A stretch of 64,000 nt of DNA. Source: Acidobacteriaceae bacterium. GTDB taxonomy: Bacteria > Acidobacteriota > Terriglobia > Terriglobales > Acidobacteriaceae. The notes beneath the pieces are model-generated. The model saw only the letters and a program-made list of their open reading frames with translations. It ran no database searches and had not been told where the DNA came from. Positions 16,557 to 33,410 of the stretch are shown piece by piece. A program made the translations under genes and the position numbers. Positions within the stretch are counted from its first letter, which is position 1, and the number at the start of each line of letters is the position of its first letter. The DNA is taken from assembly GCA_025350325.1 (NCBI GenBank), contig JANXYB010000114.1, positions 8,438 through 72,437 on the forward strand. The letters run 5' to 3'.

Positions 16557-16572
16557 TGGCACTCAGGATGCG
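16557..16572 (+). promoter_or_regulatory. Candidate sigma54 (-24/-12) promoter
   Basis: TGGCACTCAGGATGCG: GG at 16558-59 and GC at 16570-71 (exact 12-nt offset), a perfect TGGCAC half, 60 nt upstream of the 16633 ORF. Confidence 0.5.
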
Positions 16573-16632: not shown

Positions 16633-19600
16633 TTGCTTGGAGCAGGATTGGGTAAGACGTTCATTGAAATCGGCAAGTACGTTGCTCTGATGCTGCTGGC
16701 GGCCGGGTCATTGGTTGAGGCGCAGTCCCGCTTCGATGTGGAAGCGGTGCGCCTCAATAATCGCGGTGTGGCGCAGATGGGGCAGCAGTTCACTGAGAAA
16801 GCGGCACAGAGTTTTGCAGATGCATTAAAAAAAGACCCTAAACTTGCCCAGGCGGCCGTCAACGACGGCATTGCATTGATGACGTTGCAGAAGCTCGACG
16901 AGGCTAAGCAAGCGCTCAACGAAGCAATCGCACTCGATGCCAAGAGCGCACAAGCGTGGTACAACCTGGGTCTCGCGCAGCACGCGAACAACGAACTGGA
17001 TGCTGCGCTGGCCAGCTTCCAGCATGCCGTGAAGCTAGATCCCCGTGACGCGGACTCGCTGTATTTCGAAGGCGTCTGCTATCGAGAAATGAAGCAGTTT
17101 GACAAAGCCATTGAAGCGCTCAAGCAGGCGCTGGCGATCAACCCTCTGCACGCCTCTTCTGAATTTGCGCTGGCGCGCGTTCTGCAGGCTTCCGGCAATA
17201 AGGAAGATGCGAAAACCCATTTCAAACTTTTTCAGCACATGACGAGCACTAAGATTTCCGCAGCCATTGGATTGGCTTACGGAGAGCAGGGCCACTATTC
17301 AACGGTCACGCCCGTTGAGGAGCCGCAGACGCGTGAGCAGGGCATGATTCCGGTAAAGCTGGTGGCGCGGAGCATGATTGTTGACAAGCGCGGGTCAAGC
17401 GAAACGGGCGGCGCCTGCATGATAGACGCGACAGGTTCGGGGCAGATGGATTTGGTGCTTATGGAATCAGGTGCGCAAGCTATCCGCGTGCTTCATCGAC
17501 GTGGCGACGGGACGTTTGAAGACCTCGATGCGGAGGCATCCGGGCTGAAGGCAGCGGGTCATGCGGTGGCGTGCGCGGTGGGAGATTACGATGCCGATAA
17601 TCTGAATGATCTGGCCGTGGCGCTCGATGACAAGGTGCTACTGTTTCGCAATCTTGGAAAGGGAAAATTTCAAGATGTGACGGGGGAATCCGGGCTGGCC
17701 CCGCGCAATAACCCCGCAGGCATTACTTTTGTCGACTACGATCACGACGGCGATCTTGACCTGCTGTTGACGGGCGCACCCGGCAAAGAGGGTGAGACGC
17801 CCAACGTGCTGTGGCGCAACAACGGCAACAAGACTTTCACCGAGTGGACGGAACCGACTGGATTGGGAGGCAGCGGCAAGACGGCCGCCGCAATCCTTAC
17901 TGACTTTAATAATGATCGTGCTGTAGATATAGCAGTCACTAGCGACGGTGAGACGCCTCTGTTATTTGTCAATCCACGCGAAGGGAAATATCCCACGCAA
18001 GCTCTTTTTGAAAAAGAGAAACTGCCGCCGACGCTGGGAATTGCCGTGCTCGATTTCAATAAGGACGGCTGGATGGATATAGCGGTCACACACGCTGGCG
18101 CGCCGGGTCTTACACTATGGCGCAATGTCACCGGCCCGGAAAACATAGGGCGCAGATTTGAACGTGTAGCATTGCCGCTCAACGGTGTGTCGCGCGGATG
18201 GGGCGTGACCCCGATCGATATAGATAATGACGGATGGATCGACCTGGCTGCGATCGTAGACACCAGTGCAGGGCCGCGCGTGAAGGTGCTGCGCAACCGG
18301 GGAGACGGCAGCTTTGAAGACGTGAGTCATGCGCTGGGGCTGGACAGCGTGGTGCTGCACGCGCCGCGCGGACTGATTGCGGCAGATGTGGATGGCGACG
18401 GTGCGGCGGACTTGATTGTGACGCAACTCAACGCACCGCCTGTCTTGCTGAAGAATGTAGGCGCGAACAAAAACCATTTTGTGCGGCTCGACTTGAGCGG
18501 CTACGCAGACAACAAAACTGCGTTGGGAGCGAAGGTTGAAGTTTTCGCTAACGGGCAATGGCAGAAGTGGGAACTGGCCGGAGCATCGGGATATCAGACG
18601 CAGGCGCCGCCGCAGCTTCTTGTCGGACTCGGTAAGGCTGAAGGGATCGACCTGCTGCGTATTTTGTGGCCAACGGGAGTTTTGCAGGATGAGATTGATT
18701 TGCCGCACACGCCAACGATTGCGATGAAAGAGGCAGACCGGCGCGGTAGTTCGTGCCCGGTGTTGTTTGCTTGGGATGGGCATAAATACAGGCTCGTGAC
18801 TGACATCATCGGCGCAGCGGTGGTCGGGCACTGGTTCACGCCGACACGCCGTAATACACCCAACCCGGGCGAATGGATCAAGGTTGACGGCGAAAAGCTT
18901 GCCGCGGTCGATGGCAAGATGAGCCTGCGTTTTATCGAGCCGATGGAAGAGGTCAACTACATCGATCAGTTGCGATTGGTGGCGGTGGACCATCCTGACA
19001 GCGCAGAGGTCAATCCGGATGAGCGGTTCCTCGATGATCCGCCGTTTGCTTCGGGACGCGTGGTTGCATCGGCTGGGGCACGGCTGCCTCGGGGCGCGTG
19101 GGACGGTGACGGGAACGACGTGCTCGATCAGTTGAGTCGCAGCGATCACAAATTCGCCAGCGGATTCACACCGACGCCCTATGATGGCATTGCGAATGTG
19201 CATGCGCTGACGCTTGATTTAGGCGACGTGCGCGAGGGAGCGCCCCTGCGCCTGCTGATGACGGGGTACGTGAATTATTTCAGCGCAACGTCTCTTTACG
19301 GTGCGTGGCAGGCGGGTATCAAGCCCATTTCACCCTACGTTGAGGCGCAGACGGCAGATGGCAAGTGGCAAAGAATTCCGGGCGAAGCCGGATTTCCGGC
19401 AGGGCTTGAACGCACCATCGTCGTGGACCTGAGCGGTAGGCTGCCTGCGCACACGCGGCGCATTCGGCTGGTGAGCAACCTTGAAATTTATTGGGACCAG
19501 GTGCTGATCGATAACAGTGCTGAAGCTGAGGCGCGAACCACCGAGCTGCCGCTGTCGGTCGCCCGAGAACACTTCCGCGGCTATCCCAAACAGATTGACG

Positions 19601-20091
19601 GTGCGAGCCCCGGTGACCTCGATTACGATTACGACCGAGTAAGTTTGACGGGGCCTTTTCAACATCAACGTGGCAACTACACGCGTATGGGCGATGTAAC
19701 TGAGCTGGTTAAGGGCATCGACGATCGCTATGCAATCTTTGGTAGCGGCGAAGAGATTGCGACGGAATTCGATGCCGTTCGACTCCCCGCGTTGCCGCCG
19801 CATTGGAAGCGCGATTACTTTTTTTACGCCAATGGATTTGTGAAGGACATGGATTGGTGGGATGCATCGCCATTCACGGTGTCGCAATTGCCGTTTCACA
19901 TGATGAGTGCATACCCTTATCCGGCCAGCGAACAGTTCCCTGAAGACGAAGACGCGATCAATTATCAGCTGAAGTGGAACGATCGCTTCGATACGGGCGA
20001 TCCGGTGCGTTCTTATCGGTTTGACTACCAACAGCTACCCGCCACGCCTGCGAATGACGCAACACCAGCATCGACCACGGCGCACCCATGA
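16633..20091 (+). CDS. Secreted TPR + FG-GAP (CRTAC1-like) + ASPIC/UnbV multidomain protein
   Basis: About five N-terminal TPRs, many DxDxDG Ca-binding loops (DYDADNLND, DYDHDGDLD, DFNNDRAVD, DFNKDGWMD, DIDNDGWID, DVDGDGAAD), UnbV motif (GYQTQAPPQLLVGLG...IRILWPTG) and a C-terminal domain beginning SSCPVLFAWDG. Start uncertain. Confidence 0.9.
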   Translation: MLGAGLGKTFIEIGKYVALMLLAAGSLVEAQSRFDVEAVRLNNRGVAQMGQQFTEKAAQSFADALKKDPKLAQAAVNDGIALMTLQKLDEAKQALNEAIALDAKSAQAWYNLGLAQHANNELDAALASFQHAVKLDPRDADSLYFEGVCYREMKQFDKAIEALKQALAINPLHASSEFALARVLQASGNKEDAKTHFKLFQHMTSTKISAAIGLAYGEQGHYSTVTPVEEPQTREQGMIPVKLVARSMIVDKRGSSETGGACMIDATGSGQMDLVLMESGAQAIRVLHRRGDGTFEDLDAEASGLKAAGHAVACAVGDYDADNLNDLAVALDDKVLLFRNLGKGKFQDVTGESGLAPRNNPAGITFVDYDHDGDLDLLLTGAPGKEGETPNVLWRNNGNKTFTEWTEPTGLGGSGKTAAAILTDFNNDRAVDIAVTSDGETPLLFVNPREGKYPTQALFEKEKLPPTLGIAVLDFNKDGWMDIAVTHAGAPGLTLWRNVTGPENIGRRFERVALPLNGVSRGWGVTPIDIDNDGWIDLAAIVDTSAGPRVKVLRNRGDGSFEDVSHALGLDSVVLHAPRGLIAADVDGDGAADLIVTQLNAPPVLLKNVGANKNHFVRLDLSGYADNKTALGAKVEVFANGQWQKWELAGASGYQTQAPPQLLVGLGKAEGIDLLRILWPTGVLQDEIDLPHTPTIAMKEADRRGSSCPVLFAWDGHKYRLVTDIIGAAVVGHWFTPTRRNTPNPGEWIKVDGEKLAAVDGKMSLRFIEPMEEVNYIDQLRLVAVDHPDSAEVNPDERFLDDPPFASGRVVASAGARLPRGAWDGDGNDVLDQLSRSDHKFASGFTPTPYDGIANVHALTLDLGDVREGAPLRLLMTGYVNYFSATSLYGAWQAGIKPISPYVEAQTADGKWQRIPGEAGFPAGLERTIVVDLSGRLPAHTRRIRLVSNLEIYWDQVLIDNSAEAEARTTELPLSVAREHFRGYPKQIDGASPGDLDYDYDRVSLTGPFQHQRGNYTRMGDVTELVKGIDDRYAIFGSGEEIATEFDAVRLPALPPHWKRDYFFYANGFVKDMDWWDASPFTVSQLPFHMMSAYPYPASEQFPEDEDAINYQLKWNDRFDTGDPVRSYRFDYQQLPATPANDATPASTTAHP

Positions 20092-21503
20092 CAGCGGTTG
20101 TGTTCGAGTCGGCGGTGCGGCAATTGGAAATGCTGCGCGCAGGTCAAATTTCAATCATCGAGTTGGCAGAAGAGCATATTCGGCAGATTGAGCGACTTGA
20201 TCCGGCGCTGAACGCATTCGCGGATTTCGATGCGGAACGCGTTCGCGCAGAAGCCCGGCGGCTGAGCGCTATGCACGATGGGCGCGGCCCGCTGCATGGC
20301 TTGCCGGTAACGGTGAAGTCATCGATTGCGGCGGCGGGATTCCGTTGCGAAATTGGCAGCCTGCTTCATAAAGGCGAGGTGCCGCGCGAAGACGCGGTAG
20401 TGGTGGCAAGACTGCGTGCGGCCGGGGCATTGATCCTGGGCACGACAAATTGTCCCGAATTCCTGATGGCCTATGAGACCGCGAACCTGTTGCATGGCCG
20501 GACGAACAATCCATGGGACGTGAGTCGGACGCCCGGCGGATCGAGCGGCGGAGAGGCGGCAGCGATTGCAGCGGGCATGTCGGCTGCGGGACTGGGAAGC
20601 GACAGTGGCGGATCGGTCCGCGTGCCCGCACACTTCACCGGCATCTGTGCGCTGAAGCCGACGCCCGGCAGGGTCCCCGGTCGAGGCCATTTGCCGCCAT
20701 GCGTAGGGCCCTTCGCTATCCTCGGCGCAGTTGGACCGATGGCGCGGACAATTGTCGATGTCACATTGATGTTTCGCACGCTTGGTGGCCACGATCTTGC
20801 GGATCCGGCAAGTGCGCCGGTGCAGTTTCGCGAACGTGATTTGAATGAACTGCGCTGCAATCGAGTCGGATTTTTTGAAGATGACGAGCTAGTCCCGGTG
20901 ACTGCTGAAACGCGGGCTGCTGTCAACGCTGCTGCTGCGGCACTGCGCGATGCCGGCTTCAGAGTGGAACGGTTCAGGCCGAGCACACTTGAGCGGTTGC
21001 GCAAGCTTTGGTGGAAGTTTTTTGTGCAATGCGGGGCAATGTTTTATGAGCCGGCAATTCGCGGCAAGCTGGATAAATTGAGTCCAATTTTCAATGAGTT
21101 TCTAGGTATAGCAGCGAGCGTGCCGCCATTGACCGCAACGCAGCTATTGGACGCGTGGGCCGAGTTGGACGTGCTGCGCGCCAAGACTCTCGAAGAGATG
21201 CGCGAGTATCCAGTGCTGCTTTGTCCTGTGGCCAGCGTCCCGGCGTTCCGTCATGGGGAGCGCTCGTGGAACGTCGATGGCCAAGTGGTTGACTACCTCG
21301 ATGCAGTACGCCACACCCAATGGTTCAACGGGCTCGCCGCGCCTGCTGTTGTGGTGCCTGTAAGTCGATCGCGGGATGGACTGCCGATTGGAGTGCAGAT
21401 CGTTGCACGGCCATTTGAAGATGAGACTGCGCTGGGGGTAGCGACCATTGTCGATGCGGCATTTGGGTACCGTGTACCACCGATCGCAGGTAATTCTTGT
21501 TAG
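20088..21503 (+). CDS. Amidase-signature family enzyme (Ser-cisSer-Lys triad)
   Basis: GPLHGLPVTVK, TPGGSSGGEAAA, LGSDSGGSVRVPAHFTG, GLPIGVQIV. ATGA overlap with the upstream gene. Confidence 0.93.
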   Translation: MTAVVFESAVRQLEMLRAGQISIIELAEEHIRQIERLDPALNAFADFDAERVRAEARRLSAMHDGRGPLHGLPVTVKSSIAAAGFRCEIGSLLHKGEVPREDAVVVARLRAAGALILGTTNCPEFLMAYETANLLHGRTNNPWDVSRTPGGSSGGEAAAIAAGMSAAGLGSDSGGSVRVPAHFTGICALKPTPGRVPGRGHLPPCVGPFAILGAVGPMARTIVDVTLMFRTLGGHDLADPASAPVQFRERDLNELRCNRVGFFEDDELVPVTAETRAAVNAAAAALRDAGFRVERFRPSTLERLRKLWWKFFVQCGAMFYEPAIRGKLDKLSPIFNEFLGIAASVPPLTATQLLDAWAELDVLRAKTLEEMREYPVLLCPVASVPAFRHGERSWNVDGQVVDYLDAVRHTQWFNGLAAPAVVVPVSRSRDGLPIGVQIVARPFEDETALGVATIVDAAFGYRVPPIAGNSC

Positions 21504-21677
21504 TGCTGATTGAAGCGCAGAATGCTAGCAGTTCGCGTTGTTGATCGACTTTATTCGCAGTCAAGATTCTGTCAAGCTCAACCATCACATACAAATATTT
21601 ATTACGCCGCTAAAAACGAAGTGGCAGGTGCGGCAGGAGGCTCATTGCTCACCTCAACCTTTGGATGGAGGCGTGCG

Positions 21678-22607
21678 ATGAGCGATCGCGGTATTCTGAC
21701 GCTTCCCCGGAATGGAGCGCAGAAGTTGCGCGATAGCTGGCATGATCGTTTTGCCGAAACGCCTGATGTTCTAAAGAGTCCCGAACTCGAACACACTGTG
21801 GTGCGGGTTTTGGATCTTGAGATTGGTGGCGAGGACTTCATCACCATGGCCGGGCCGTGTTCGGTCGAGACTGAAGCCGAACTCATAGCCACAGCAATTC
21901 ATGTACGCCGGGGCGGTGCGCGCATCCTGCGCGGCGGCGCGTTTAAACCGCGCAGTTCGCCCTATGCATTCCAAGGTCATGGTGTCAAAGGTTTGAAGAT
22001 GCTTGACCGCGCGCGCACGGAAAGCGGCCTGGCCATTGTCACCGAGGTCATGTCGGAAGACGATGTGCCGCTGGTAGCGGAATACGCCGATATTTTGCAG
22101 ATTGGCTCGCGCAGCATGGAGAATTACACGCTGCTTGCGGCGGCGGCACGCTCTGGCCGACCTATCTTGCTCAAGCGCGGCATGATGGCTACGGTGGCAG
22201 ATCTGCTGCGTTCGGCGCAGGTGGTCATAGATGCGGGAAATCCCAACGTCATTCTCTGCGAACGAGGCATTCGGACCTTCGACACATCGCTGCGCAATAC
22301 ATTTGATACGGGCGCCATCGCGCTGCTCAAGTACATTTCGCATCTCCCAATCATCGCCGACCCAAGTCACGCCGCCGGACATAGTGAGTTAGTGCCCGCA
22401 CTGGCCCGCGTCGGCATCGCGGCAGGAGCGGACGGGCTGATCGTTGAGGTGCATCCGAACCCTGCAAAGGCGTGGAGCGACGGCGAGCAGTCGCTCACGT
22501 TTGCTGAATTCGACGAGATGATGGCCTCTATTCAGCCATATATTTCACTGCGTGCAATGTCCCTAAGCCAGTCAGCTGACGCTCGGCCGATGGAGGCCGT
22601 TAGATGA
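21678..22607 (+). CDS. aroF: 3-deoxy-7-phosphoheptulonate (DAHP) synthase, type I-beta
   Basis: MAGPCSVE, RGGAFKPRSSPY, LQIGSRSMEN, LLKRG, LCERGIRTF, ADPSH, IVEVH, SDG. Start set at ATG 21678 behind a GGAGG RBS (309 aa). Confidence 0.93.
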   Translation: MSDRGILTLPRNGAQKLRDSWHDRFAETPDVLKSPELEHTVVRVLDLEIGGEDFITMAGPCSVETEAELIATAIHVRRGGARILRGGAFKPRSSPYAFQGHGVKGLKMLDRARTESGLAIVTEVMSEDDVPLVAEYADILQIGSRSMENYTLLAAAARSGRPILLKRGMMATVADLLRSAQVVIDAGNPNVILCERGIRTFDTSLRNTFDTGAIALLKYISHLPIIADPSHAAGHSELVPALARVGIAAGADGLIVEVHPNPAKAWSDGEQSLTFAEFDEMMASIQPYISLRAMSLSQSADARPMEAVR

Positions 22608-24010
22608 GGGTCTGTGCCAGTGTTCTGCGTGCCGTTGCCTGGGTTGCATTCCTTTTGCCGGTCTGCGGGTTCGCTCCTAATCCATCACAAAAGATTGGTA
22701 CGGATGTCATTGTGACGGCGGCGCTGGCATACGAACCTTTGGCTGCGATTCGGGGCGAGGAACGTTTTCCTAAAGGTGCGCAGCTTCTGTTGCTTCATGA
22801 CGGAAAAACGGAGCCGCTGCTCACGGACTTCGCAGCAACTGCGGACGCCAATGTTTCGTTCGATGCGCATAGGGTGTTGTTCTCTGGCAAGAAGAGGGTG
22901 ACCGATGCGTGGCAAATATGGGAACTCACGCTGCGAGATCATGATGTACGCCAGTTGACCGAAGGGCAGCAGGATGCAATTCGCCCCCTGTACCTGCCGG
23001 ATGGAAATATGGTGTATGCGCTGCGGACGCCGCAGGGATTCCAGTTGGAATCGGCAAAAATTGCCCTTACAGAAAATAGTGACGGTCAAAAGCCTGCGGG
23101 TACTCTTGCGGTTCTGCCGTTGACTTACTCGCAGGCTAGCGCGGTGCCGGCAGACGTTCTGGCGGATGGGCGCATTTTATTCGAGGCGGGTTTCCCGCTT
23201 GGGTCGGGTGCGGTACCGGAGATGTTTCTGGTTTACTCCGATGGATCGGGCGTTGAGTCTTATCGTTGCGATCACGGCACGGGAATGGTAGGCGGGCGGT
23301 GGGGCGGGAAACAATTGGCGTCGGGCGACGTGGTGTTCACGCACGGTGATTCGCTGGCGCGGTTTACCTCTCCGCTCGCACACGAGGAACGAATCGCTGC
23401 GCCTCACGCAGAGTATGCGGGAGCCATTATTGAAACAGCTTCAGGTGCGTGGCTTGTGAGTGCGCGGTCTACAAACAGCAGTCCTTATGCATTGAAGCTT
23501 TTTAAGCCGGGTGCAGTGGCGAGCCGAACGGTCTACGCGAGGGGTGAGAATGTAGTCGAACCGGTTCTGGTTGCGCCGCGCAATCGACCGCGTCGACATC
23601 CTTCAGCGCTGCACGAATGGGATTACGCCAACATGCTTGCACTCGATGCGCGGATCTCGCGCGATGGGCCACTGTCTGGTGTACCAGTCTCCGTTCGCCT
23701 TGAGATGCAGGATGCCGCAGGACGCGCGGTTGCGATGGGCACTGCGCCGGTCGAGAAAGACGGATCCTTCTTTGTTAAAGCACCTGCCGACAAGCCAATT
23801 CGCTTTGCGCTGCTCGATGGCAAAGGTGCAGTGCTGCGGCAGGAGCACGGATGGTTCTGGATTCGCCGCGGTGAGCAACGCATTTGCGTGGGTTGCCATG
23901 CGGGGCCTGAACGCGCCTCGGAAAATCGTGTGCCCGCCGTATTGCTTCGCACGACAACGGCTGTCGATCTAACTTCCGCCGTGCAGCATTCGCTATCGGG
24001 AGGCAACTGA
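22604..24010 (+). CDS. Secreted hydrazine synthase alpha-subunit-like protein (propeller + HZS_alpha middle domain, 1 CxxCH)
   Basis: Signal peptide; propeller start (LLTDFAATADANVSFDAHRVLFSG...WQIWEL...VRQLT); C-terminal GTAPVEKDGSF..APADKPIRFALLDGKG...WFWIRRGEQRICVGCH, with CVGCH at 23885-23899. ATGA overlap with aroF. The HZS similarity is recognised from memory. Confidence 0.82.
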   Translation: MRVCASVLRAVAWVAFLLPVCGFAPNPSQKIGTDVIVTAALAYEPLAAIRGEERFPKGAQLLLLHDGKTEPLLTDFAATADANVSFDAHRVLFSGKKRVTDAWQIWELTLRDHDVRQLTEGQQDAIRPLYLPDGNMVYALRTPQGFQLESAKIALTENSDGQKPAGTLAVLPLTYSQASAVPADVLADGRILFEAGFPLGSGAVPEMFLVYSDGSGVESYRCDHGTGMVGGRWGGKQLASGDVVFTHGDSLARFTSPLAHEERIAAPHAEYAGAIIETASGAWLVSARSTNSSPYALKLFKPGAVASRTVYARGENVVEPVLVAPRNRPRRHPSALHEWDYANMLALDARISRDGPLSGVPVSVRLEMQDAAGRAVAMGTAPVEKDGSFFVKAPADKPIRFALLDGKGAVLRQEHGWFWIRRGEQRICVGCHAGPERASENRVPAVLLRTTTAVDLTSAVQHSLSGGN

Positions 24011-24011
24011 A

Positions 24012-25694
24012 ATGGTGTATCGCACTCTTCTCTTACTTTTGAGTATTGCTCCCGTCATCGCGGCTCAGACCGTGACCACGGCACCACCGATCGCGCCGCA
24101 CACGCTGCCCTCGAGCGCAGCTAAATCCACCGACGCTGTAATTCGCTTTGAAGATGCAAGCGACAAGGCGGGCATCAACTTTACGCACAGCATTGGCTCG
24201 CGCCAGCTTGGTTCACTGCTTGAGGGCACGGGCGCAGGCTGCGTCTGGATCGATTACAACAATTCAGGCCTGCCCTCGTTATATGTTGTGAATGGGCGGC
24301 CGCTCGACGACTCGGTGCATCCCTTTCCGCTGAAAGATAAACCCGCAACACCGCCGCATAATCATCTTTATCGCAATGATGGCAACGGTCATTTCACTGA
24401 TGTGACGGACGCGGCCGGTCTCAATCCCGACATGTATTCGGTGGCGGTTACGGCGGCAGATTATGACAACGATGGATTTGTCGATCTGCTCGTGACGGGC
24501 TACGGCAAAACGATTCTCTACCACAATGATGGCAATGGGCACTTCACAGATGTAACTGCCAAGGCCGGTATAAGCGTCGATGGTTGGGCGATCAGTTCGA
24601 CCTGGCTGGACTACGACAAAGATGGTTGCGTTGATCTTTTTGTTGGTCGCTACGTGAAATTCGATCCCAAGTACCGCGCGTTTTATGCGGCGGATAACTA
24701 TCCGGGACCGCTCGATTACGAGGGTGAAACCAATCGTCTCTATCACAACAATTGCAACGGCACATTCACCGACGTTACCGATAAATCAGGCATCGGCGCA
24801 TTTGTGGGGCGGACAATGGGCGTGACGGCGGCGGATTTTGACGGCGATGGATGGGACGACATCTACGTGGCCAACGATCGCACCGAAAATTTTCTATTCC
24901 GCAACAAGCACGACGGAACATTTGAAGAAGTTGGCAACGACACGGGTACTGCTTTTGGACAGAATGGCGAGTCCACCTCGTCGATGGGGCCGATATTCGC
25001 GGATTTTGAAGGACGAGGCGTGCTCGACCTCTGGGTGACCGATGGGCACTATAACCGGATGTTGCACAACGCCGGCAAGCAGGGTTTCGAAGACATGGGC
25101 GCGTCGAACGGCGTGTCCCAAACCAACGCGCAGTATGTAAGTTGGGGCACCGGCGTCTACGACTTCGACAATGACGGGCTCCTCGACATTCTTATTTTTC
25201 ACGGTGGCCTAATCCACATGATCCCGCAGGAACATACGCTGTTTCACGGGCTGGGGGATAGGCGATTCGCGGACACGTCTCGCACCGCAGGGCCGGTGCT
25301 GAGTGCGCGCACCGTCGCGCGGGGCGCATGTTTTGCCGACTATGACAATGACGGCAAGGTCGACGCGTTCCTCGTAAACCTGGGCGCTAAGGGAACGCTG
25401 GTGCATAACGTTTCTACGGGCTCGGGGCATTGGGTAGCGATCAAGCTTGTGGGCAGTAAAAGCAACCGGGATGGGATTGGTGCGCGCGTGGAAGTGTTTG
25501 CGGGCAGCAAGCACTGGACGGCTGAGCGAGTTGCATCTTCGGGATATCTTTCGCAGGATGACAGCCGGTTGCATTTTGGATTAGGCGCGGCAAGTGCCAT
25601 CGACAAAATCATTGTGCGTTGGCCGAGCGGTCGCGAGCAGACGCTGGAAACGCAGGGCCTGGACCGAGTTCTCACGATAGAGGAGCCGAAGTGA
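24012..25694 (+). CDS. Secreted CRTAC1-family (FG-GAP repeats + ASPIC/UnbV) protein
   Basis: Signal peptide, DYDNDGFVD, DYDKDGCVD, DFDGDGWDD, DFDNDGLLD and DYDNDGKVD loops, NRDGIGARV, GYLSQDDSRLHFGLG, VRWPSG. Starts 1 nt after the upstream stop. Confidence 0.93.
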   Translation: MVYRTLLLLLSIAPVIAAQTVTTAPPIAPHTLPSSAAKSTDAVIRFEDASDKAGINFTHSIGSRQLGSLLEGTGAGCVWIDYNNSGLPSLYVVNGRPLDDSVHPFPLKDKPATPPHNHLYRNDGNGHFTDVTDAAGLNPDMYSVAVTAADYDNDGFVDLLVTGYGKTILYHNDGNGHFTDVTAKAGISVDGWAISSTWLDYDKDGCVDLFVGRYVKFDPKYRAFYAADNYPGPLDYEGETNRLYHNNCNGTFTDVTDKSGIGAFVGRTMGVTAADFDGDGWDDIYVANDRTENFLFRNKHDGTFEEVGNDTGTAFGQNGESTSSMGPIFADFEGRGVLDLWVTDGHYNRMLHNAGKQGFEDMGASNGVSQTNAQYVSWGTGVYDFDNDGLLDILIFHGGLIHMIPQEHTLFHGLGDRRFADTSRTAGPVLSARTVARGACFADYDNDGKVDAFLVNLGAKGTLVHNVSTGSGHWVAIKLVGSKSNRDGIGARVEVFAGSKHWTAERVASSGYLSQDDSRLHFGLGAASAIDKIIVRWPSGREQTLETQGLDRVLTIEEPK

Positions 25695-27595
25695 ATTGGC
25701 CCATTCACAGGTGGCTGCAGCCCGCAGTCGTCGCGGTCCTGGCGGCGGTGGCTGCGGTCCTGTTGGGCGTCAGCGTGGGGCACGGCGATGCTGCCCATGC
25801 GGCAGCGATGCCTGTTACGGGAGAGGTTCTCAACTACGCGTCGCCAGTAGAGCTGCTGTTTTCGCCTGACGGTGCGCGGCTTTACGTGCTCTGCCAACAG
25901 AGCGACGAAGTCAGAGTGCTCGATGCAAAAAGCGATGCGGCGATCAAAAGCATTACCGTGGGCCGCGTCCCGCGCGGATTCTCGTTGTCGGCAAGCGGCG
26001 ATCGCCTGTTTGTGGCGAATTCGTGGGACGATACTGTTTCAATCATCGATACGAAATCACTCGCGATAACGGCGACATGGCCGGTAGGGTCTGAGCCTTC
26101 GAGCATCGTTGCGGATCGCGAAGGCAAGCGTTTGTTTGTTGCCAATCGGATATCGAACGATGTGGCTGTGCTCGATGCAAACACCGGCGTTGAGGAGAAG
26201 CGGCTGGCGGCAGGGCGCGGGGCAAGTTATATAACTCCGTCGCCTGATGGGAGCCGGCTTTATGTCACGCATGTTTATCCCAACCCGACCCCCCATCGTA
26301 CCGCGCCTGAATCGGAAATCACGGTGATCGATACAGCGCGGGCGGTTGTCGTAGACAGAATTATTCTGCATAACATCGCGCATGCCTTTCACGTGGCTTT
26401 CTCTGCCGACGGGCGGTTGGGCGTTGCCGCCGAAATGCATCCAAAAAATCTGATTCCGCTCGCACACCTTGAGCACGGCGGAGCTTTTGCAGACACGTTG
26501 ATGCTGTTTGGTGCGGATGTTGGCAAGCCGGTGGAGATACCTCTCGATGAGTTGGAACGCTATGCTGTGCGGCCGTTCGGTGTGGCAATCATGGCTGATA
26601 AATCGCGCATCTTCGTTACTTGCGAAGGCTCGGAACTCGTGACTGTGCTCGATGTGCAAAGGCTTCTGCGTTTTGCGCATACACATCGCGGTCCGAATGC
26701 ACAAGATCTTTCAGCGAGCGCTGATTATGTGATCGCGCACATCGCCGTCGGTCATGATCCGCGTGGTATGGCAATGAAGCACGATGGGCATAGCTTGCTG
26801 GTTGCGAATCGGCTGGACGACACGATCAGCGTTATCGATACGCGAACCAATCGTCTCGCATCTACGATTGCGCTGGCAGGGCCGAAGAAATTGTCGGTGC
26901 TGCGCCACGGTGAGCAAACGTTCTATACAGCGCGGCATTCCTTTCAAGGTCAGATTGGCTGCGCCAACTGTCATATCGATTCAACGTTTGACGGACTGAC
27001 GTGGGATTTGGAGCCAGACGGGTTTGGTCGCGACATTGTCGACAATCGGCCAATTGAAGACGTCAAGGATACCGAGCCTTTCAAGTGGAACGGCGGCAAT
27101 CCAAACCTTCCGACCGAATGCGGACCGCGGACTGAGAAATATTTTTGGCGCGCGGAGAATTACGACGACCTTACGCTTACCGACCTCGTTGTTTACATCC
27201 GCAGCTTGCAGGCGCGACCGAATCGCTGGCGTCGTCCGATAAGTGAATCGACGCCGGCGCAGGAGCGCGGCAAAGATCTGTTCACGCGAGACAAAGACAA
27301 GTTTGGAAACGCAATTCTGGAAACCAATCGCTGCGTGTTTTGCCATAGCGGAAAAAAAGGCACCAACCAGAAGTCCTTTGACGTGGGAACGAAGAAGTGG
27401 ACCGACAACACGGGCCCGCTTGATACGCCGCAACTGACCAACATCGGAATCACCGGGCCTTATCTTCATGACGGCTCAGCGGCCACACTCGAGCAGATAT
27501 GGACAGTATTCAACCCCGAAGACAAGCATGGGCGCACCAACGATTTAACCAAGGACGAATTGAACGACCTGATCGAATATCTGAGGACGCGATGA
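25691..27595 (+). CDS. Secreted YVTN beta-propeller fused to a di-haem cytochrome c (CcP/MauG/HZS-gamma fold); HZS beta-gamma-like
   Basis: GTG start overlapping the upstream stop, signal peptide, YVTN repeats (LFVANSWDDTVSIID, LFVANRISNDVAVLD, LLVANRLDDTISVID), CANCH at 26960-26974, CVFCH at 27332-27346, DTPQL..GPYLHDGSAATL, KHG. Confidence 0.88.
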   Translation: MNWPIHRWLQPAVVAVLAAVAAVLLGVSVGHGDAAHAAAMPVTGEVLNYASPVELLFSPDGARLYVLCQQSDEVRVLDAKSDAAIKSITVGRVPRGFSLSASGDRLFVANSWDDTVSIIDTKSLAITATWPVGSEPSSIVADREGKRLFVANRISNDVAVLDANTGVEEKRLAAGRGASYITPSPDGSRLYVTHVYPNPTPHRTAPESEITVIDTARAVVVDRIILHNIAHAFHVAFSADGRLGVAAEMHPKNLIPLAHLEHGGAFADTLMLFGADVGKPVEIPLDELERYAVRPFGVAIMADKSRIFVTCEGSELVTVLDVQRLLRFAHTHRGPNAQDLSASADYVIAHIAVGHDPRGMAMKHDGHSLLVANRLDDTISVIDTRTNRLASTIALAGPKKLSVLRHGEQTFYTARHSFQGQIGCANCHIDSTFDGLTWDLEPDGFGRDIVDNRPIEDVKDTEPFKWNGGNPNLPTECGPRTEKYFWRAENYDDLTLTDLVVYIRSLQARPNRWRRPISESTPAQERGKDLFTRDKDKFGNAILETNRCVFCHSGKKGTNQKSFDVGTKKWTDNTGPLDTPQLTNIGITGPYLHDGSAATLEQIWTVFNPEDKHGRTNDLTKDELNDLIEYLRTR

Positions 27596-28674
27596 CGAAA
27601 TTCTTTTTCAAATCGGTGGCAAGGCTCGCAGCTGTAGCCTCGGTGGCGCTGGGCACGCTGGCATGGGCCGCTCCGCCGCAGATGCCGATGTTTCGCTTTG
27701 AAAAGTTTACGACCGCAAACGGTCTGCCCGACAATCACGTTTTTGCAGTTCTTGTGGACGGGGATCGGGTTTGGGCTGGAACGGAGAACGGACTCGCAGT
27801 TTACGAAAATCACGCGTGGAAAACCTACACCACGACAGATGGCCTGGCGCACCGTGCAGTTCTGTCGCTGGCGCTGGACGAGCGCACTGGCGACGTGTGG
27901 GCAGGCACCATGGGTGGGCTGAGCCGCATTTCAGGCGGCCGCATTGATACTTTCACGCAGTTGAACTCGGGTCTGAGCAATGACGTGGTGTACGGCGTAT
28001 CCGTCGAGGGCGAAAACGTGTGGGTAGCAACCGCAGCGGGCGCGTGCCGCTACGATCTTCGTTCTGGAGGGTGGTCGCTTTTTAACGAGCGCAACACCCC
28101 TATGAACGAGATTTGGGTTTACGGTGTTTCGGCTACTCCGACCAAGGTTTATTTCGCCGTATGGGGTAGTGGCCTGCTTGAATATGACCAAAAAACCGGC
28201 CGCTGGGACAAGTATGACGACCCCGATGGAGAGAATGAGATTGTGCTCTTCAAAGATCAGGGCCTGATCCATGAGATTGTCACTTCGGTCAGTTATGTAG
28301 ACAATATTGTTTGGGCCGCTACATATTTCGGCGACAGCAGGTACGACGGCCGCTACTGGCACAACTTTCTTACGAAAGACAGTGGGCTTCCCTCGAACTT
28401 CACGAACACAATCAAAGGCGTGGACGCCAAGCGCGCCTGGTTTGGCACGGACAAAGGGCTGGCCTACTACGACGGAGTGAATTGGGCGGTATATCGACCA
28501 TCTCTCACTACCGGCAAGCCTGAAATGACCATACGCGATGGCAAGGGGAACGTAACTTCCGTCGAGGTCACGTCTGCGCCGGCACACAACTATGTTTTGG
28601 GAATTGATTTTCAGGGGAGCGACATTTGGGTCGCTACTGCTAAGGGTTTAAGTCACGGGATTCATCAGCCATAA
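27592..28674 (+). CDS. Secreted stand-alone beta-propeller (two-component-regulator propeller repeats, no kinase)
   Basis: Start reset to ATG 27592 (ATGA overlap); signal peptide; repeats GLPDNHV..VWAGTENGL, GLAHRAV..VWAGTMGGL, GLSNDVV..VWVATAAG, GLPSNFT..WFGTDKGL. Confidence 0.85.
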   Translation: MTKFFFKSVARLAAVASVALGTLAWAAPPQMPMFRFEKFTTANGLPDNHVFAVLVDGDRVWAGTENGLAVYENHAWKTYTTTDGLAHRAVLSLALDERTGDVWAGTMGGLSRISGGRIDTFTQLNSGLSNDVVYGVSVEGENVWVATAAGACRYDLRSGGWSLFNERNTPMNEIWVYGVSATPTKVYFAVWGSGLLEYDQKTGRWDKYDDPDGENEIVLFKDQGLIHEIVTSVSYVDNIVWAATYFGDSRYDGRYWHNFLTKDSGLPSNFTNTIKGVDAKRAWFGTDKGLAYYDGVNWAVYRPSLTTGKPEMTIRDGKGNVTSVEVTSAPAHNYVLGIDFQGSDIWVATAKGLSHGIHQP

Positions 28675-28686
28675 GGAGCTATCGAG

Positions 28687-29187
28687 ATGATTGCATTTTC
28701 AGAAATTCTAGATACGATCGCGCACGCGCCTATCATAAAGCGCGCGATGACCAACCACGGAGTACTTAACGAGGCTTACGCCTATGCCAAGCCAAGCTCG
28801 TTTTCGCGTGGCATGCGCATTGATTTGAACGGGCTCACCATCCTGCTCATCTCGGGTACAGCGTCGATTGACGAGAACGGTGTAAGCGTTCACGTCGGCG
28901 ACTTTCGCGCGCAGATGAAGCGCACGCTCGAGAACATCACAGGTCTGCTCGCAAGCGAAGGATGCACCTGGCACGATATCGTGCGCACCAGCTGCTACCT
29001 CCGCGACATCGATCGTGACTACGATGCATTCAACGACGAGCGAACCGCCTTCTTTACGGCGCAGGGTCTTGATCCGCTACCTGCCTCAACGGGTATCGAG
29101 GCGCACTTGTGCCGGCCTGAGTTGCTTATTGAGATCGAGGCGATTGCGATGTTTCGCACGGAGAAAGCTGCTAGCACCAAGGAGTAA
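28687..29187 (+). CDS. Rid/YjgF-superfamily protein resembling the catalytic domain of FkbO/Hyg5 chorismatases
   Basis: PSSFSRG, LLISGTASI, HVGDFRAQ..TLENI, CYLRD, LCRPELLIEIEAIA; no signal peptide; AGGAG RBS. Confidence 0.8.
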   Translation: MIAFSEILDTIAHAPIIKRAMTNHGVLNEAYAYAKPSSFSRGMRIDLNGLTILLISGTASIDENGVSVHVGDFRAQMKRTLENITGLLASEGCTWHDIVRTSCYLRDIDRDYDAFNDERTAFFTAQGLDPLPASTGIEAHLCRPELLIEIEAIAMFRTEKAASTKE

Positions 29188-29192
29188 GTGCA

Positions 29193-31211
29193 ATGGGCAA
29201 GGGACTGGTACTGCTAGCGGTTTGTGGTTTTACTTTGAGCACGGTATATGGGGCAGCTCAGGATACGACGAAAGGTGCGGGCGCATGTGAGTGTGGTGCG
29301 CACCCGCCCGGGCCGCCGCGTGACCGCTCGGTGACTCCGTACGCTGGCGAGCCTGCCGATCTGAGCCCTTATTCAAAGTTTGCCGCACCTTACGACCTCA
29401 ACTATACCCATCCTAATATTTATGCTGGCGCCTCGCGGGACTTGCCTCAGCCTGAAAATCTGACTGAAGTGCGTATCGGGTTTTTCGGACCGATCGAGCA
29501 CAATCCCGAACAGGTTTTTGGATTGCGTATGTTGCATGGTGCACAATTAGCGGTCGAAGAAGCCAACGCACGCGGTGGTTACGGCGGCAAGCCATTCAAG
29601 CTGATGCTGCATAACGATTACGACAATTGGCAGGCAAAGACGGTATACGGCGATGATCGTTCGACCGACCCGACCATCTGGGGCTCCGCTTCAAACGAAG
29701 TGGTGAAGATGGTTTATGACGATCAGGACTGGGCCGTGTTTGGCTCCATCAGTTCCGAGTCAACGCATATCGCTCTGCGCGTTGCGCTTCGCGCGGAGAT
29801 TCCCATCGTCAACTCCGCATCGACCGATCCCACGATCCCGGAAACATACATCCCGTGGTACTTCACCAACCTGCAGGATGATCGCGTACAGGATTTAACG
29901 CTGGCCCGTCATATCTTCACCGAGTCGGGCCTGAAGCGCGTGGCATTGCTGAGAATCAACAGTCGCTACGGGCGCTTTGGCGTTATCAAGTTTCGCGACG
30001 CGGCCAGGCGGCTCGGGCATCCCGTGGTGATCGAGCAGAAATTTTTGCCCGGCGACACGGACTACACGCGCGAACTCAAAATTATTCAATCGTCGCGCGC
30101 AGATGCCATCGTTTTGTGGACCGACGAGATTCCGGCGGCGAACATTCTCAAGCAGATGAGAGCGCTGGGGATGAAGCAGCGCGTTTTCGGTTCGTATCGT
30201 ACGCTGGGGCCTGAATTGCTCGCTGAGGCTGGCCCTGCTGCAGAGGGTTTTGAGGCTGTGTTTCCATACGACCCCACGCGGAAAGATTCGCGCTGGCTCG
30301 ACTTTAACAGCCGATTCGACGCTCGATTTCAAGAGCAACCTGAGCAGTTTGCTGCGCTGGCCTACGATGCAATGAACGCACTGCTCAGCTCCATTTGCAA
30401 GGCTGGACTCAACCGCGCGCGCATTCACGACGCGCTGGCCAGTATCGAGCAATACGATGGCGTGACCGGGCACATGATGTTCGATCCCAATCAAAAGAAC
30501 GTCGCGCCGATGTATATGGGGATAGTCCACAACGGAGCAATTACGTATCGCGTAGCAAGCATGGAGAAGCCGGGTACAGCTGACCCGGCAGCGATCGCTT
30601 TTCCTGCTGTATCAATGGGTGCAGACAGTGGTGCTCCCAAGCCCCAGCAAGCTCGCGCTCCAGCGACGCCGTACGCGCGGGTGGGGGAGGGGGGCGTTGC
30701 CATTGCGGGTCCGCATAGTGCGGATGCGCCGGATGGTGCAATGCGCGTGGTGCTGTTTGGACCGCAAGCGGTGAAGATTGCCGAGTCGGTCGAAATGCGC
30801 GCGCAACTTGCCGGCGCTGCCGCAAAAGGACGTGTCTGGGTTGTACTGCCGGTTGCGAGCAACCAGAACTGGGGCGCGGCTTCAACCCAATTAGTGCATG
30901 CGCTCATGGATCTACACGCGCTGGCCATCCTCGCGCTCGATCGTGAGTCAGCGCACCTCGCAGAGCAATTGGCGCTCAAGACGTTTGTGCCTGTTGTTGC
31001 GCTAAGCGATGACAAGACGCTGACTTCGACGAACGTGCCATGGATTTTTCGCCTGCCGTCTAGCACCGAACCCGTAGCGGCCTTGCGCCTGATTCAAACT
31101 GCATCGCAAAAGAGCGGCGTTAACGCGGACCGGCTGAGAGACGTGCTGGCATCAGGCGATGCAATCGATGGGCTGGCGTTCTCGTCGACGGGCGAGGTAA
31201 AGCTGCCGTGA
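29193..31211 (+). CDS. Secreted type-1 periplasmic binding protein (Leu/Ile/Val-like) with N-terminal CxCGAH segment and an extra C-terminal half-domain
   Basis: Signal peptide, VRIGFFGP, GAQLAVEEANARGG, AVFGSISSESTH, AALAYDAMNAL, YDGVTGHMMFD. The C-terminal ~170 aa repeat the first PBP lobe (LAEQLALKTFVPVV..NVPWIFRL). Confidence 0.82.
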   Translation: MGKGLVLLAVCGFTLSTVYGAAQDTTKGAGACECGAHPPGPPRDRSVTPYAGEPADLSPYSKFAAPYDLNYTHPNIYAGASRDLPQPENLTEVRIGFFGPIEHNPEQVFGLRMLHGAQLAVEEANARGGYGGKPFKLMLHNDYDNWQAKTVYGDDRSTDPTIWGSASNEVVKMVYDDQDWAVFGSISSESTHIALRVALRAEIPIVNSASTDPTIPETYIPWYFTNLQDDRVQDLTLARHIFTESGLKRVALLRINSRYGRFGVIKFRDAARRLGHPVVIEQKFLPGDTDYTRELKIIQSSRADAIVLWTDEIPAANILKQMRALGMKQRVFGSYRTLGPELLAEAGPAAEGFEAVFPYDPTRKDSRWLDFNSRFDARFQEQPEQFAALAYDAMNALLSSICKAGLNRARIHDALASIEQYDGVTGHMMFDPNQKNVAPMYMGIVHNGAITYRVASMEKPGTADPAAIAFPAVSMGADSGAPKPQQARAPATPYARVGEGGVAIAGPHSADAPDGAMRVVLFGPQAVKIAESVEMRAQLAGAAAKGRVWVVLPVASNQNWGAASTQLVHALMDLHALAILALDRESAHLAEQLALKTFVPVVALSDDKTLTSTNVPWIFRLPSSTEPVAALRLIQTASQKSGVNADRLRDVLASGDAIDGLAFSSTGEVKLP

Positions 31212-31249
31212 GAATTTCTCGCTGAACTAATGCCGGGTGAAAACACTTC

Positions 31250-31293
31250 AAACAAGAGAGGCAGCCCGTTGCGGACTGCCTCTCTCTTGTTTT
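31250..31293. terminator. Bidirectional intrinsic terminator closing the 16.6-31.2 kb block and the porin gene
   Basis: AAACAAGAGAGGCAG...CTGCCTCTCTCTTGTTT long stem with A/T tails on both sides, between convergent genes. Confidence 0.8.
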
Positions 31294-31313
31294 GACCGCT
31301 TGCAGATTTTGTT

Positions 31314-33410
31314 CTAAGGCAAGTAGTAGCGGAAGGACGTCCAAATCATATTGTCGATTCCCTTGGCGCCGATGCCTGATGCTCCAGACCATCCCTCGCG
31401 CACGGCATAGCCGTATTGAACGCTCTGGCGCAGGCGACCGCGATCACCCTTGTAGATGTCATACCAGTAACCGCCTGTGATCTCTTGCACGTCGCGGTTT
31501 TGCGCACCGCAGGACCCGCCGGGGTAATAGCCTGTCGAACTGCCGTTGAAGCCGGGTGTAGTGGTTGTGTTGCAAGCGGAATTGCCGAGTAGCCTCGAGC
31601 CGTAGCCGACAGCAGCTGCCGTCGGTGCGCCCCAGTGGCCGCCCCACGTGCCTCCTGCTGCAAGTTGTGCCGCAGTGGGCTTGGCAACGCATTGCGCCGC
31701 CAGGGTGAATCCAGTCGGGCAGAAGGTGGCTGTAGGGCCGCCGAGCGTAGTGGCCAGCGGGTTTGCATAGTCGGCGCGGCTCGCATAGTCCCCGCCGTAG
31801 TTCATGTAAATCGCGAGGCGAGGCGTTGGGTTGATTTCAACTGTAAGCAGGCCAGAGAGGTTGTGAATCGGCGCCAATCCGCCCCCGCTTTTCGCGGTAA
31901 CGTCGGCTAGAGTTGAGTCGCCGTAGCGTCCCATGCCGGTTCCGTAGAGGGCCTTGGCTCCCACGATCAGCTTGTCTTTGATTACTGGAACGCGGAAGCT
32001 GCCGCCGAAGCCGCCAAGTACGATGCTGTCGGAGAACGCGCCTGCCGTGGACGAAGCCGGAGCAACCACTGCGCCGGTTTCGATGTCTTTTTGGCCGCCG
32101 TATCGCACGGTGTCGTTGCTCACGCCGGGATAGATGGTTTCATGCGCAAATCGACCGATGCCCAGGATCTCATAGTGTCCCCAGCCCGGGTCGAATGCGA
32201 TTTTGGCAAGAATGTCAGGCGCTCTGTTAAAGGAAAGGTTAGCGATGTTAGTGTTTGCGACCAAGGTGTTATACACGGGCAGATACGTCGTTGACCCGGG
32301 CACCTGCGTGTAGTTTTGCACATAGGTCGTGGTGGCACTGGCGCTGATCGCCGCGTTGTAGTTACCGCCATTGTTGCCGGCGCTGCCGAGCACCGCGTAG
32401 GGGGTGTTGCCCGCCAGCGTAGCGGTGTAGAGGAGCTGCGGGTTCTCAACTGCGATGCCGAAAGCCGCGTGCTTGGCGGTTTTGGTGACGCGGAATCCGT
32501 ATTGCCGCGTCCACACAAAGCCGGGGACGTAATTCGGATCGATGGTCTGCGGGGCCATGATATCGCCGGAAATATTGGAGATGCCCTTTTTGTCTTCGGT
32601 GGCAAGCGACCATAACTGACCACCGGTAAAGGCCCAGTGATTATTGGTTTCAGCCTGACCCCAGATGACGCGCTGACGCAACACATAGCTATTCGATTGA
32701 TTGTTGTTGGACGAGACGCCGGTGCCAAGCCAATCTGCCTCGTAATAGCCTCGTAGTGTGCCCCAATCGGTTTTGCCCTCGGCCATGAGGGAGATGCGCG
32801 AGTGACGACCGCTGCCATAGAACTCGCCCAGAGAATACGCATCCGCATGTTCGTAAGGAATCGCATTGAACGCAGTCGGAGTGTCGCCGCCGGTGGCTTT
32901 GGTGCGATATATCGTCTCGCCCGCCAAGTAACCGCCCGGAGTCAAACCGATTCCCTTGTAGTGGAGCACGCTCGGATTATTTATTGCCTTCTTCAGTGCC
33001 GAAGTTTCGTCGGAGATGCTGGATACGATCGTGGTGTTGACCGCCTTCATGTCAGTCACGGTGGACTGCAGAGTGCTTACGGCAGCGGTGTTTTCAGTAG
33101 TCGCTTGCTGTTGCGATGTGGCGTCGGCCTCAGCCTTGGCCGCTGCGGTCTGCGCGTCTGCCGCAGTTTGCTGCGCCTGTTTCAACTGCGCGTCTTTAGC
33201 TGACAGATCGGTCTTCAAACTGTCGATCTGTAGTTGAAACTCTTGACGCAGAGATTCAATCTGTTCTTGAACAGTGGGCTTGGGAGGCTGCTTCTTTCTG
33301 GCGGTAACGTGTTTTCTCGCAGGCGCGGGGGGATCGCCGGCATAGGCAAACGGGCTGACAAGACTGGCTGCCACAATTGCAGCGACAGCAGTTTTGAGTT
33401 TGTAGTTCAT
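31314..33410 (-). CDS. Outer-membrane porin-like beta-barrel with N-terminal coiled coil
   Basis: Start reset to MNYKLKT (ATG 33410, GAGG RBS); signal peptide, coiled-coil segment, amphipathic beta-strands, C-terminal WTSFRYYLP. Confidence 0.75.
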   Translation of the reverse strand: MNYKLKTAVAAIVAASLVSPFAYAGDPPAPARKHVTARKKQPPKPTVQEQIESLRQEFQLQIDSLKTDLSAKDAQLKQAQQTAADAQTAAAKAEADATSQQQATTENTAAVSTLQSTVTDMKAVNTTIVSSISDETSALKKAINNPSVLHYKGIGLTPGGYLAGETIYRTKATGGDTPTAFNAIPYEHADAYSLGEFYGSGRHSRISLMAEGKTDWGTLRGYYEADWLGTGVSSNNNQSNSYVLRQRVIWGQAETNNHWAFTGGQLWSLATEDKKGISNISGDIMAPQTIDPNYVPGFVWTRQYGFRVTKTAKHAAFGIAVENPQLLYTATLAGNTPYAVLGSAGNNGGNYNAAISASATTTYVQNYTQVPGSTTYLPVYNTLVANTNIANLSFNRAPDILAKIAFDPGWGHYEILGIGRFAHETIYPGVSNDTVRYGGQKDIETGAVVAPASSTAGAFSDSIVLGGFGGSFRVPVIKDKLIVGAKALYGTGMGRYGDSTLADVTAKSGGGLAPIHNLSGLLTVEINPTPRLAIYMNYGGDYASRADYANPLATTLGGPTATFCPTGFTLAAQCVAKPTAAQLAAGGTWGGHWGAPTAAAVGYGSRLLGNSACNTTTTPGFNGSSTGYYPGGSCGAQNRDVQEITGGYWYDIYKGDRGRLRQSVQYGYAVREGWSGASGIGAKGIDNMIWTSFRYYLP

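Follow-up and report, generated by a model that had tools for sequence, protein, structure and literature searches.

What two haem proteins resembling hydrazine synthase (HZS) might be doing in a non-anammox bacterium is the question raised by a block of nine genes, g1 to g9, of an Acidobacteriaceae bacterium from peat soil. The block spans positions 16633–31211 of the window, which is the whole stretch of 64,000 nucleotides (nt) analysed here (contig JANXYB010000114.1, assembly GCA_025350325.1). In an initial annotation, made from the letters of the DNA, the locus was read as building a complex with the architecture of HZS, possibly for N–N or N–O chemistry, and as standing outside anammox energy metabolism; the last of these points is upheld. 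Of the two proteins, that of g4 is a homologue of HZS alpha and that of g6 one of the fused HZS beta and gamma subunits, and the locus is in all likelihood a clade II HZS-homologue cluster and not a hydrazine synthase. Clusters of this type were described in 2025, and the locus is one more member of the type rather than a newly discovered system. HZS was long believed to have no relatives, and its homologues inform the origin of anammox.

Protein g4 has a single CXXCH haem motif, CVGCH, at residues 428–432 (nt 23885–23899). Among sequences in the PDB, only HZS alpha is a significant match (5c2v_A, 7e-10), in two stretches, one in the propeller and one around the haem motif. A Foldseek search with the AlphaFold2 model (pLDDT 69.5) also places 5c2v_A first (2.6e-17), nine orders of magnitude ahead of the runner-up, TolB (4e-8). 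Protein g6 has two haem motifs, CANCH (26960–26974, residue 424) and CVFCH (27332–27346, residue 548). It matches 5c2v_B over its full length (4e-31) and 5c2v_C with 2e-22, whereas the best chains of the CcP/MauG/MbnH type reach 4e-7 to 0.4. NCBIfam ranks the Scalindua-type beta-gamma fusion model hydrazine_BC first for g6 (4e-53), far under its cut-off. Foldseek again returns 5c2v_B first (7e-26, TMt 0.83, root-mean-square deviation 3.8 Å), five orders of magnitude ahead of an archaeal YVTN S-layer protein (1e-20, TMt 0.63); the propeller of the g6 model has a pLDDT of about 90. The pair anticipated by the initial annotation, a mono-haem HZS-alpha-like protein and, downstream, a propeller and di-haem protein, is recognised by Pfam and by CXXCH counts of one and two. 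The kinship of both to HZS proved specific, the 5c2v chains leading by sequence and by fold, and the contrary outcome, best structural matches to MauG/CcP or to unrelated propellers, did not occur.

Catalytic residues were mapped with HMMER alignments to 5c2v, using 47–48 orthologues and 16 distant relatives. In g4, 'CVGCHAGPE' stands opposite 'CSGCHYGSY' of HZS alpha, which includes His587 and Tyr591; no tyrosine follows downstream, and the tyrosine after the CXXCH of alpha is missing in all 16 distant relatives inspected. The arrangement of HZS, a Tyr591-ligated haem alpha-I with the CXXCH histidine at a Zn site, is not found in g4. The protein ends 36 residues past the CXXCH and thus lacks the C-terminal domain with the bis-His haem alpha-II. 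An 'RCDH' motif at residues 221–224 of the alpha-like propeller is invariant in 47 orthologues and might provide ligands to a metal or on the distal side of a haem. According to spectroscopic work, the chemistry at alpha-I is tied to a Tyr-ligated haem of very low potential (PMC12607021).

In g6, His144 of HZS gamma is replaced by an invariant tryptophan, Trp466 (27086–27088), and Asp168 by a threonine. Cys165 of gamma ('VCGRD'), which makes the third thioether to haem gamma-I, appears to be matched by Cys477 ('ECGPR', 27119–27121). Conservation of this cysteine reaches at least 90% among 48 orthologues; the residue is kept in clade III loci too and has an equivalent in all correctly aligned distant loci except one (L106), where it is an aspartate. 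In the beta loop, where a glutamate of HZS binds Mg in the tunnel between subunits, 'AHLEHGG' lies opposite 'CEAENGQ' of HZS, with one glutamate aligned and the other replaced by histidine; which of these positions has the published residue number is uncertain. Since the locus has neither the alpha tyrosine ligand nor haem alpha-II, nor His144 or Asp168 of gamma, it very probably makes no hydrazine, as judged from the aligned residues. The N–N chemistry proposed in the initial annotation thus fell away: no positive evidence for it was obtained, and residues held necessary for hydrazine formation are absent.

The published cluster type comes from a search of GTDB for HZS homologues (Hagglund et al. 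2025, Genome Biol Evol evaf244, PMC12758564), and what follows refers to the part of that paper that was consulted. Co-localised genes for alpha and fused beta-gamma are reported there in non-anammox bacteria and assigned to clades I–IV; the taxa include Paludibaculum, Syntrophobacter, Opitutus and several Planctomycetota, with many Acidobacteriota in the supplementary tables. In clades I and II, the genes for alpha and beta-gamma are separated by one of the FG-GAP/CRTAC1 type; the alpha proteins of clades II and III lack haem alpha-II and the last ~100 residues, and clade II combines a beta-gamma protein without extra haems with binding-protein genes downstream. Alpha Tyr591 and alpha Cys303 are reported absent from every homologue, a tryptophan occupies the position of gamma His144, and the verdict given there is that they are unable to produce hydrazine. 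The present locus agrees throughout with the features that define clade II, sharing with the clusters so described the order alpha, FG-GAP/CRTAC1, fused beta-gamma, as well as resembling them in an alpha protein without haem alpha-II, the last ~100 residues or Tyr591, in a two-haem beta-gamma protein with tryptophan at His144 and in substrate-binding protein genes 3′ of the core. It differs in keeping an apparent equivalent of gamma Cys165, which the same part of the paper gives for clade I only. The cluster description in that part includes no Reg_prop propeller, Rid-fold protein or dedicated DAHP synthase; set against it, the module seen here is larger by the Reg_prop propeller and by a pair of Rid-fold protein and short DAHP synthase that points to chorismate-pathway chemistry. 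HZS-like enzymes had already been proposed in 2023 as a wider family with other substrates (PMC10732223).

With the HZS of Kuenenia stuttgartiensis (5C2V) the locus shares the alpha propeller, middle domain and haem alpha-I motif, the seven-bladed YVTN beta propeller and a gamma di-haem domain with a third cysteine; the fusion of beta and gamma is as in Scalindua HZS. Unlike the Kuenenia enzyme, it has no proximal tyrosine, no Zn site and no haem alpha-II, and it has tryptophan and threonine at gamma His144 and Asp168. The genes also stand in the opposite order, HZS has nothing that corresponds to the accessory propellers and binding proteins, and the host is an acidobacterium with no hydrazine dehydrogenase context evident.

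The two haem genes are inherited together. In a phylogenetic profile of 301 sampled Acidobacteriota genomes, the alpha-like gene occurs in 18 and the beta-gamma-like gene in 18, with 17 genomes having both (p = 1e-25 in a Fisher test, which takes no account of phylogeny); in the sole alpha-only genome, the locus is cut by a contig end. The co-occurrence expected by the initial annotation is accordingly present. Cluster-positive genomes make up 6% of the sample and are scattered patchily over 12 families, including two of the four genomes of the window's own genus. In public data, the alpha-like gene is represented by more than 4,000 sequence clusters (90% identity). Most named close matches are Terracidiphilus-type peat bacteria, and the cluster is therefore widespread in peat and soil metagenomes.

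Conservation at greater distance was assessed in 20-kb regions around the alpha-like gene of 15 distant genomes from nine families, whose proteins are 26–51% identical. Genes g4, g5 and g6 are found in all 15 loci, and g7 and g9 in all 14 that are not shortened by a contig end, in a shuffled gene order. The g5 gene adjoins alpha in all 15, and the window's own genome contains at least ten g5 paralogues; g7 is recognised at 44–51% identity. By haem count, the distant loci comprise those with decahaem beta-gamma (clade I), those with trihaem beta-gamma and an FG-GAP gene upstream (clade III) and dihaem ones (clade II). All-against-all clustering of open reading frames (ORFs) from the 15 loci gave no widely shared family besides g1–g9, with the proviso that the ORF caller misses some GC-rich genes. 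At shorter range, the nine-gene order is preserved in about 55 metagenome-assembled genomes (MAGs) of Terracidiphilus and Acidobacteriaceae. In the complete genome of Telmatobacter sp. DSM 110680, a cultured strain, an identically ordered block of all nine genes lies at about 2.247–2.262 Mb of CP121196.1 (locus L162), which makes genetics and biochemistry feasible. A literature search found no relevant expression or proteomic data on HZS_alpha-domain proteins.

Variants of the cluster were also seen. The beta-gamma protein of one distant locus, L108 (G280:C7), has two canonical haem motifs and four C-terminal CXXCH and falls outside clades I–III as described in PMC12758564. Some peat MAGs contain two alpha-like loci (L039 and L069, the contig being PLPA01000283.1; L044 and L080 in one MAG). 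The second locus type in peat MAGs consists of alpha, beta-gamma and a distant Rid-like gene (38–41% identity), with no CRTAC1-like gene.

Genes g3 and g8 connect the cluster to the chorismate pathway. The assignment of g3 is given by NF006421 (385.9 bits, cut-off 335) and TIGR01361 (345.9 bits, cut-off 267.75), and it is one of three type I-beta DAHP synthase paralogues in the genome. Forty-one paralogues, cluster-linked and unlinked, were compared: nearly all unlinked copies have an N-terminal regulatory extension of ~75 residues, and nearly all linked copies are without it. Eleven of the 16 linked copies fall in one clade, a clustering of labels equalled by none of 500 label shuffles. A short DAHP synthase lies within the 20-kb region in six of the 15 distant loci, at varied position and order. 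One paralogue with the regulatory N-domain (own contig C51:3186-5197) stands beside a stand-alone YVTN propeller gene, and G062 has the same arrangement.

Rid genes of the g8 type occur in the 20-kb region of ten of the 15 distant loci, seven of them at 54–71% identity, more than any other gene compared shows, and three as tandem copies at 36–38%. An orthologue of g8 is present in 14 of 18 alpha-positive genomes and in five of 283 alpha-negative ones (p = 8e-17). A DAHP synthase gene also comes directly after those g8 copies that stand apart from the cluster or belong to genomes lacking alpha (L153, L157, L158, L160 and L161). A congener without the cluster has a g8 orthologue (67% identity; L159, G032:C87, 5418–8873) beside two chorismate-pathway genes, those for a monofunctional prephenate dehydratase and an MqnP/UbiA-type prenyltransferase.

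In comparison with the PDB, g8 matches the RidA family (1e-9) ahead of FkbO (0.026) and Hyg5 (0.21). It has 'PAS' opposite the 'PAR' of PH0854 and HI0719, so that the catalytic Arg105 is replaced by serine. This arginine is changed in ~10% of RidA-subfamily proteins, and the change argues against imine hydrolase activity (Niehaus et al., PMC4433059); canonical imine hydrolysis by g8 is unlikely, as far as the motif tells. Identity as a chorismatase of the FkbO/Hyg5/XanB2 type was considered and rejected: TIGR04444 reaches 34.5 of the required 325 bits and aligns in its last domain only, and g8, with its one domain, is much shorter than FkbO (344 residues) and Hyg5 (340 residues). With RidA/YjgF proteins and the chorismatases that share their fold, g8 has in common the Rid fold, a C-terminal 'EIEAIA' and chorismate-pathway gene neighbours. 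The gene context suggests a chorismate-pathway role, in which g8 would work with the unregulated DAHP synthase in the manner of a mutase, a lyase or a regulator. The operon with chorismate and amidase enzymes announced by the initial annotation stands in part: the pair of DAHP synthase and Rid protein is a conserved companion, whereas the amidase is confined to one lineage and g8 is no chorismatase.

The arrangement of the block is compact (Table 1). Every junction was read, and the co-directional layout is as first described: start and stop codons overlap as ATGA at 20088, 22604 and 27592 and as GTGA at 25691, and the short gaps measure 1 nt (24010/24012), 12 nt (28674/28687) and 5 nt (29187/29193). 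The widest interval, 174 nt, separates 21503 from the ATG of g3 at 21678. The longest-ORF starts of g3, g6 and g7 (21510, 25619 and 27499) lie upstream of the starts adopted here, which are those of the initial annotation. The gene calls in Telmatobacter sp. DSM 110680 (g3, 304; g6, 634; g7, 375 amino acids) match the adopted starts for g3 and g6 and come near for g7 (375 against 360 amino acids here). The N-termini were inspected by eye, and signal peptides were recognised on six products, the number foreseen.

Table 1. Genes and hairpin of the block (positions in the window; aa, amino acids).
Feature	Position	Strand	Description	Source or best match
g1	16633..20091	+	exported protein with TPR, FG-GAP and UnbV_ASPIC, 1152 aa	Pfam
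g2	20088..21503	+	amidase-signature amidase, cytoplasmic	Pfam Amidase 2.2e-98
g3	21678..22607	+	type I-beta DAHP synthase without N-terminal regulatory domain, 309 aa	NF006421
g4	22604..24010	+	HZS-alpha-like propeller and middle domain, one haem motif	PF18582 1.6e-16
g5	24012..25694	+	exported CRTAC1-like FG-GAP propeller with UnbV_ASPIC	Pfam
g6	25691..27595	+	fused HZS beta-gamma-like protein, 7-bladed YVTN propeller and di-haem domain	5c2v_B, 5c2v_C
g7	27592..28674	+	exported single Reg_prop beta-propeller	Pfam Reg_prop
g8	28687..29187	+	cytoplasmic Rid/YjgF-fold protein, single domain, 166 aa	Pfam, NCBIfam
g9	29193..31211	+	exported LivJ/HAAT-type solute-binding protein with N-lobe remnant of a second	Peripla_BP_6 2.4e-42
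hairpin	31248..31294		between convergent g9 and 31314-33605 (-)	direct folding

This layout bears on whether the nine genes belong together at all. The block could be an HZS-like core (g4–g7 and g9) lodged among unrelated housekeeping genes (g1–g3 and g8) through slow rearrangement; the flanking genes g0 and g10 are syntenic too, the amidase is missing from 14 of the 15 distant clusters and the gap before g3 is long. However, g8 and the short DAHP synthase turn up again in distant families, within the cluster or next to it, despite the shuffled order, g8 tracks alpha across the phylum, and the four start/stop overlaps and gaps of 1–12 nt would imply co-translation. Such a mixture of unrelated genes is regarded as unlikely.

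For the locus as a non-hydrazine-forming clade II cluster, a mechanism can be put forward. The exported proteins would assemble into a periplasmic HZS-like haem complex with two sites. At one, a gamma-type active-site haem, held by its CXXCH and a third cysteine, would be wired via a CcP/MauG-type tryptophan to an electron-transfer haem; the other would be a conventional c-haem with a histidine ligand, carried by the alpha-like propeller. The gamma-like haem would convert a small diffusible O- or N-species, and the product or oxidising equivalents would move on to the alpha-like haem, where a ligand bound to the orphan binding protein, either an organic amine or an aromatic acid, would react. 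Cytoplasmic g8 and g3, the latter without its regulatory domain, would probably supply or handle a chorismate-pathway compound tied to this chemistry. A two-site redox enzyme of this kind is the preferred model, but a tentative one, possible though doubtful. Relatives in clade I have eight extra haems, which speak for sustained electron flow and for an oxidoreductase over a peroxide shunt. That the cluster represents an unrecognised periplasmic N- or O-transforming system of abundant peat and soil Acidobacteriota, with a chorismate-derived aromatic as co-substrate or mediator, is very unlikely; if true, NO or hydroxylamine, for example, might be coupled to an aromatic amine or acid in an evolutionary sister reaction of hydrazine synthesis.

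Several points weigh against this interpretation. The interface between alpha and beta-gamma is taken over from homology and is to that extent presumed. The di-haem domain of the g6 model has a pLDDT below 50, and the gamma comparison therefore depends on sequence only. The kept equivalent of Cys165 means that some chemistry specific to HZS gamma may persist. The window's g3 sits on a long branch of its own, unplaced relative to the clade of linked DAHP synthases. Finally, synteny within the family reaches into unrelated flanks, and the preserved nine-gene order is weak evidence for g1 and g2.

A competing role for the di-haem domain would be that of a CcP/MauG-type enzyme, which would use H2O2 either for detoxification or to form a high-valent haem that would modify a partner protein oxidatively in the manner of MauG and MbnH; the partner would be the alpha-like, CRTAC1-like, Reg_prop or binding protein, and the likeness to HZS would be merely ancestral. 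With the CcP/MauG/MbnH superfamily, g6 shares two c-haems ~120 residues apart, a periplasmic location and a tryptophan between the haems that is invariant, as in CcP and MauG. The C-terminal half, and only this half, is matched by PF03150 (35.2 bits, cut-off 25.6), and the NCBIfam MbnH/MauG and Pfam CCP_MauG matches also lie there; several co-conserved exported proteins without obvious catalysis could serve as substrates or subunits. Unlike members of that superfamily, however, g6 is fused to a YVTN propeller, is far closer to HZS gamma (2e-22 against 4e-7 or worse) and has an extra haem-proximal cysteine foreign to CcP and MauG. As aligned, it combines one hallmark of HZS gamma with one of CcP/MauG. 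A plain peroxidase needs no alpha protein, two propellers or binding proteins, and the eight additional haems of clade I imply sustained electron flow. A CcP/MauG-type function is thus considered quite unlikely.

Least probable, and indeed highly improbable, is an N–N or N–O bond former in which the gamma-like haem would turn NO into hydroxylamine, as in HZS, and the alpha-like haem would condense this with ammonium or an amine, the binding protein delivering an organic or aromatic amine and the product being hydrazine or a substituted hydrazine or hydroxylamine: the specific likeness to all three HZS subunits, the third haem cysteine of HZS gamma, the orphan amine/amino-acid-type binding proteins and the chorismate-branch gene pair would suit it, but the alpha Tyr591 ligand, Zn site and haem alpha-II are absent, gamma His144 and Asp168 are replaced, no partner of the hydroxylamine-oxidoreductase (HAO) type, the type of hydrazine dehydrogenase, co-occurs and PMC12758564 arrives at the same negative verdict. 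HAO-family homologues are found in 68 of the 301 Acidobacteriota genomes without association with alpha (3/18 alpha-positive against 65/283 alpha-negative genomes, p = 0.77). A partnership of HAO with the cluster was rejected on this absence of co-occurrence, which excludes an HAO-type partner from the conserved module.

The remaining companions of the core differ in how closely they follow it. The C-terminal ~450 residues of g1 lie outside its assigned domains, and homologues are found in or beside the cluster in three of the 15 distant loci (L106, L108 and L114); the link of g1 to the haem core is moderate. The NCBIfam matches of g2 are all under their cut-offs. Outside loci of the Acidobacteriaceae type, L106 is the only cluster with an amidase gene, and g2 is lineage-specific rather than a conserved companion of the haem core. 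In the PDB, g7 matches the sensor domain of a Bacteroides hybrid two-component system (4a2l, 1.2e-25). Protein g9 matches 4gnr (1.7e-27), and its C-terminal 215 residues (456–672) correspond to a second binding protein that distant loci encode as a separate gene; this end looks like the result of fusion to, and truncation of, a second binding protein. The 14 distant loci that reach far enough all contain LivJ-type binding-protein genes, either one or, usually, two. Among the neighbours scanned around g9, neither a permease nor an ATPase gene of an ABC transporter was found.

At its 5′ border, the block is flanked by a divergent gene, g0, for a UDP-GlcNAc 2-epimerase. Beyond the 3′ end lie a gene for a 763-residue protein with no Pfam match (31314–33605, minus strand) and one for a 1015-residue protein whose sole match is a PIG-L deacetylase domain (33773–36820, minus strand); in related genomes, synteny with the cluster extends to both. 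No regulator gene flanks the block, its neighbours being the epimerase gene upstream and the convergent gene without a Pfam match downstream. A strong terminator had been said to close the block, and the hairpin there agrees with this: it folds with -25 kcal/mol (z = -4.0; none of 200 shuffles equally stable) and has a T-run of four bases. It is likely a bidirectional terminator; a consensus terminator scan gave no call at this site, and the hairpin was identified by direct folding. A candidate sigma-54 promoter of the form TGGCAC-N5-ATGC, TGGCACTCAGGATGC at 16557–16571 (+), 62 nt 5′ of g1, was rejected as a chance match. Sigma-54-like matches in the window are no commoner than expected by chance, and such a motif precedes g1 in two of 58 orthologous loci against a background of 8%.

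Elsewhere in the genome, contig C4 encodes a membrane-anchored octahaem protein of the HAO family (27264–28496; PF13447, 84.6 bits). Multihaem ORFs with 16, 11, 11, 10, 9, 8 and 7 CXXCH motifs are located on contigs C74, C68, C78, C126 and C113, and several multihaem cytochrome ORFs on C74 lie close to CRTAC1-like paralogues. This richness in multihaem proteins may reflect a capacity for extracellular electron transfer.

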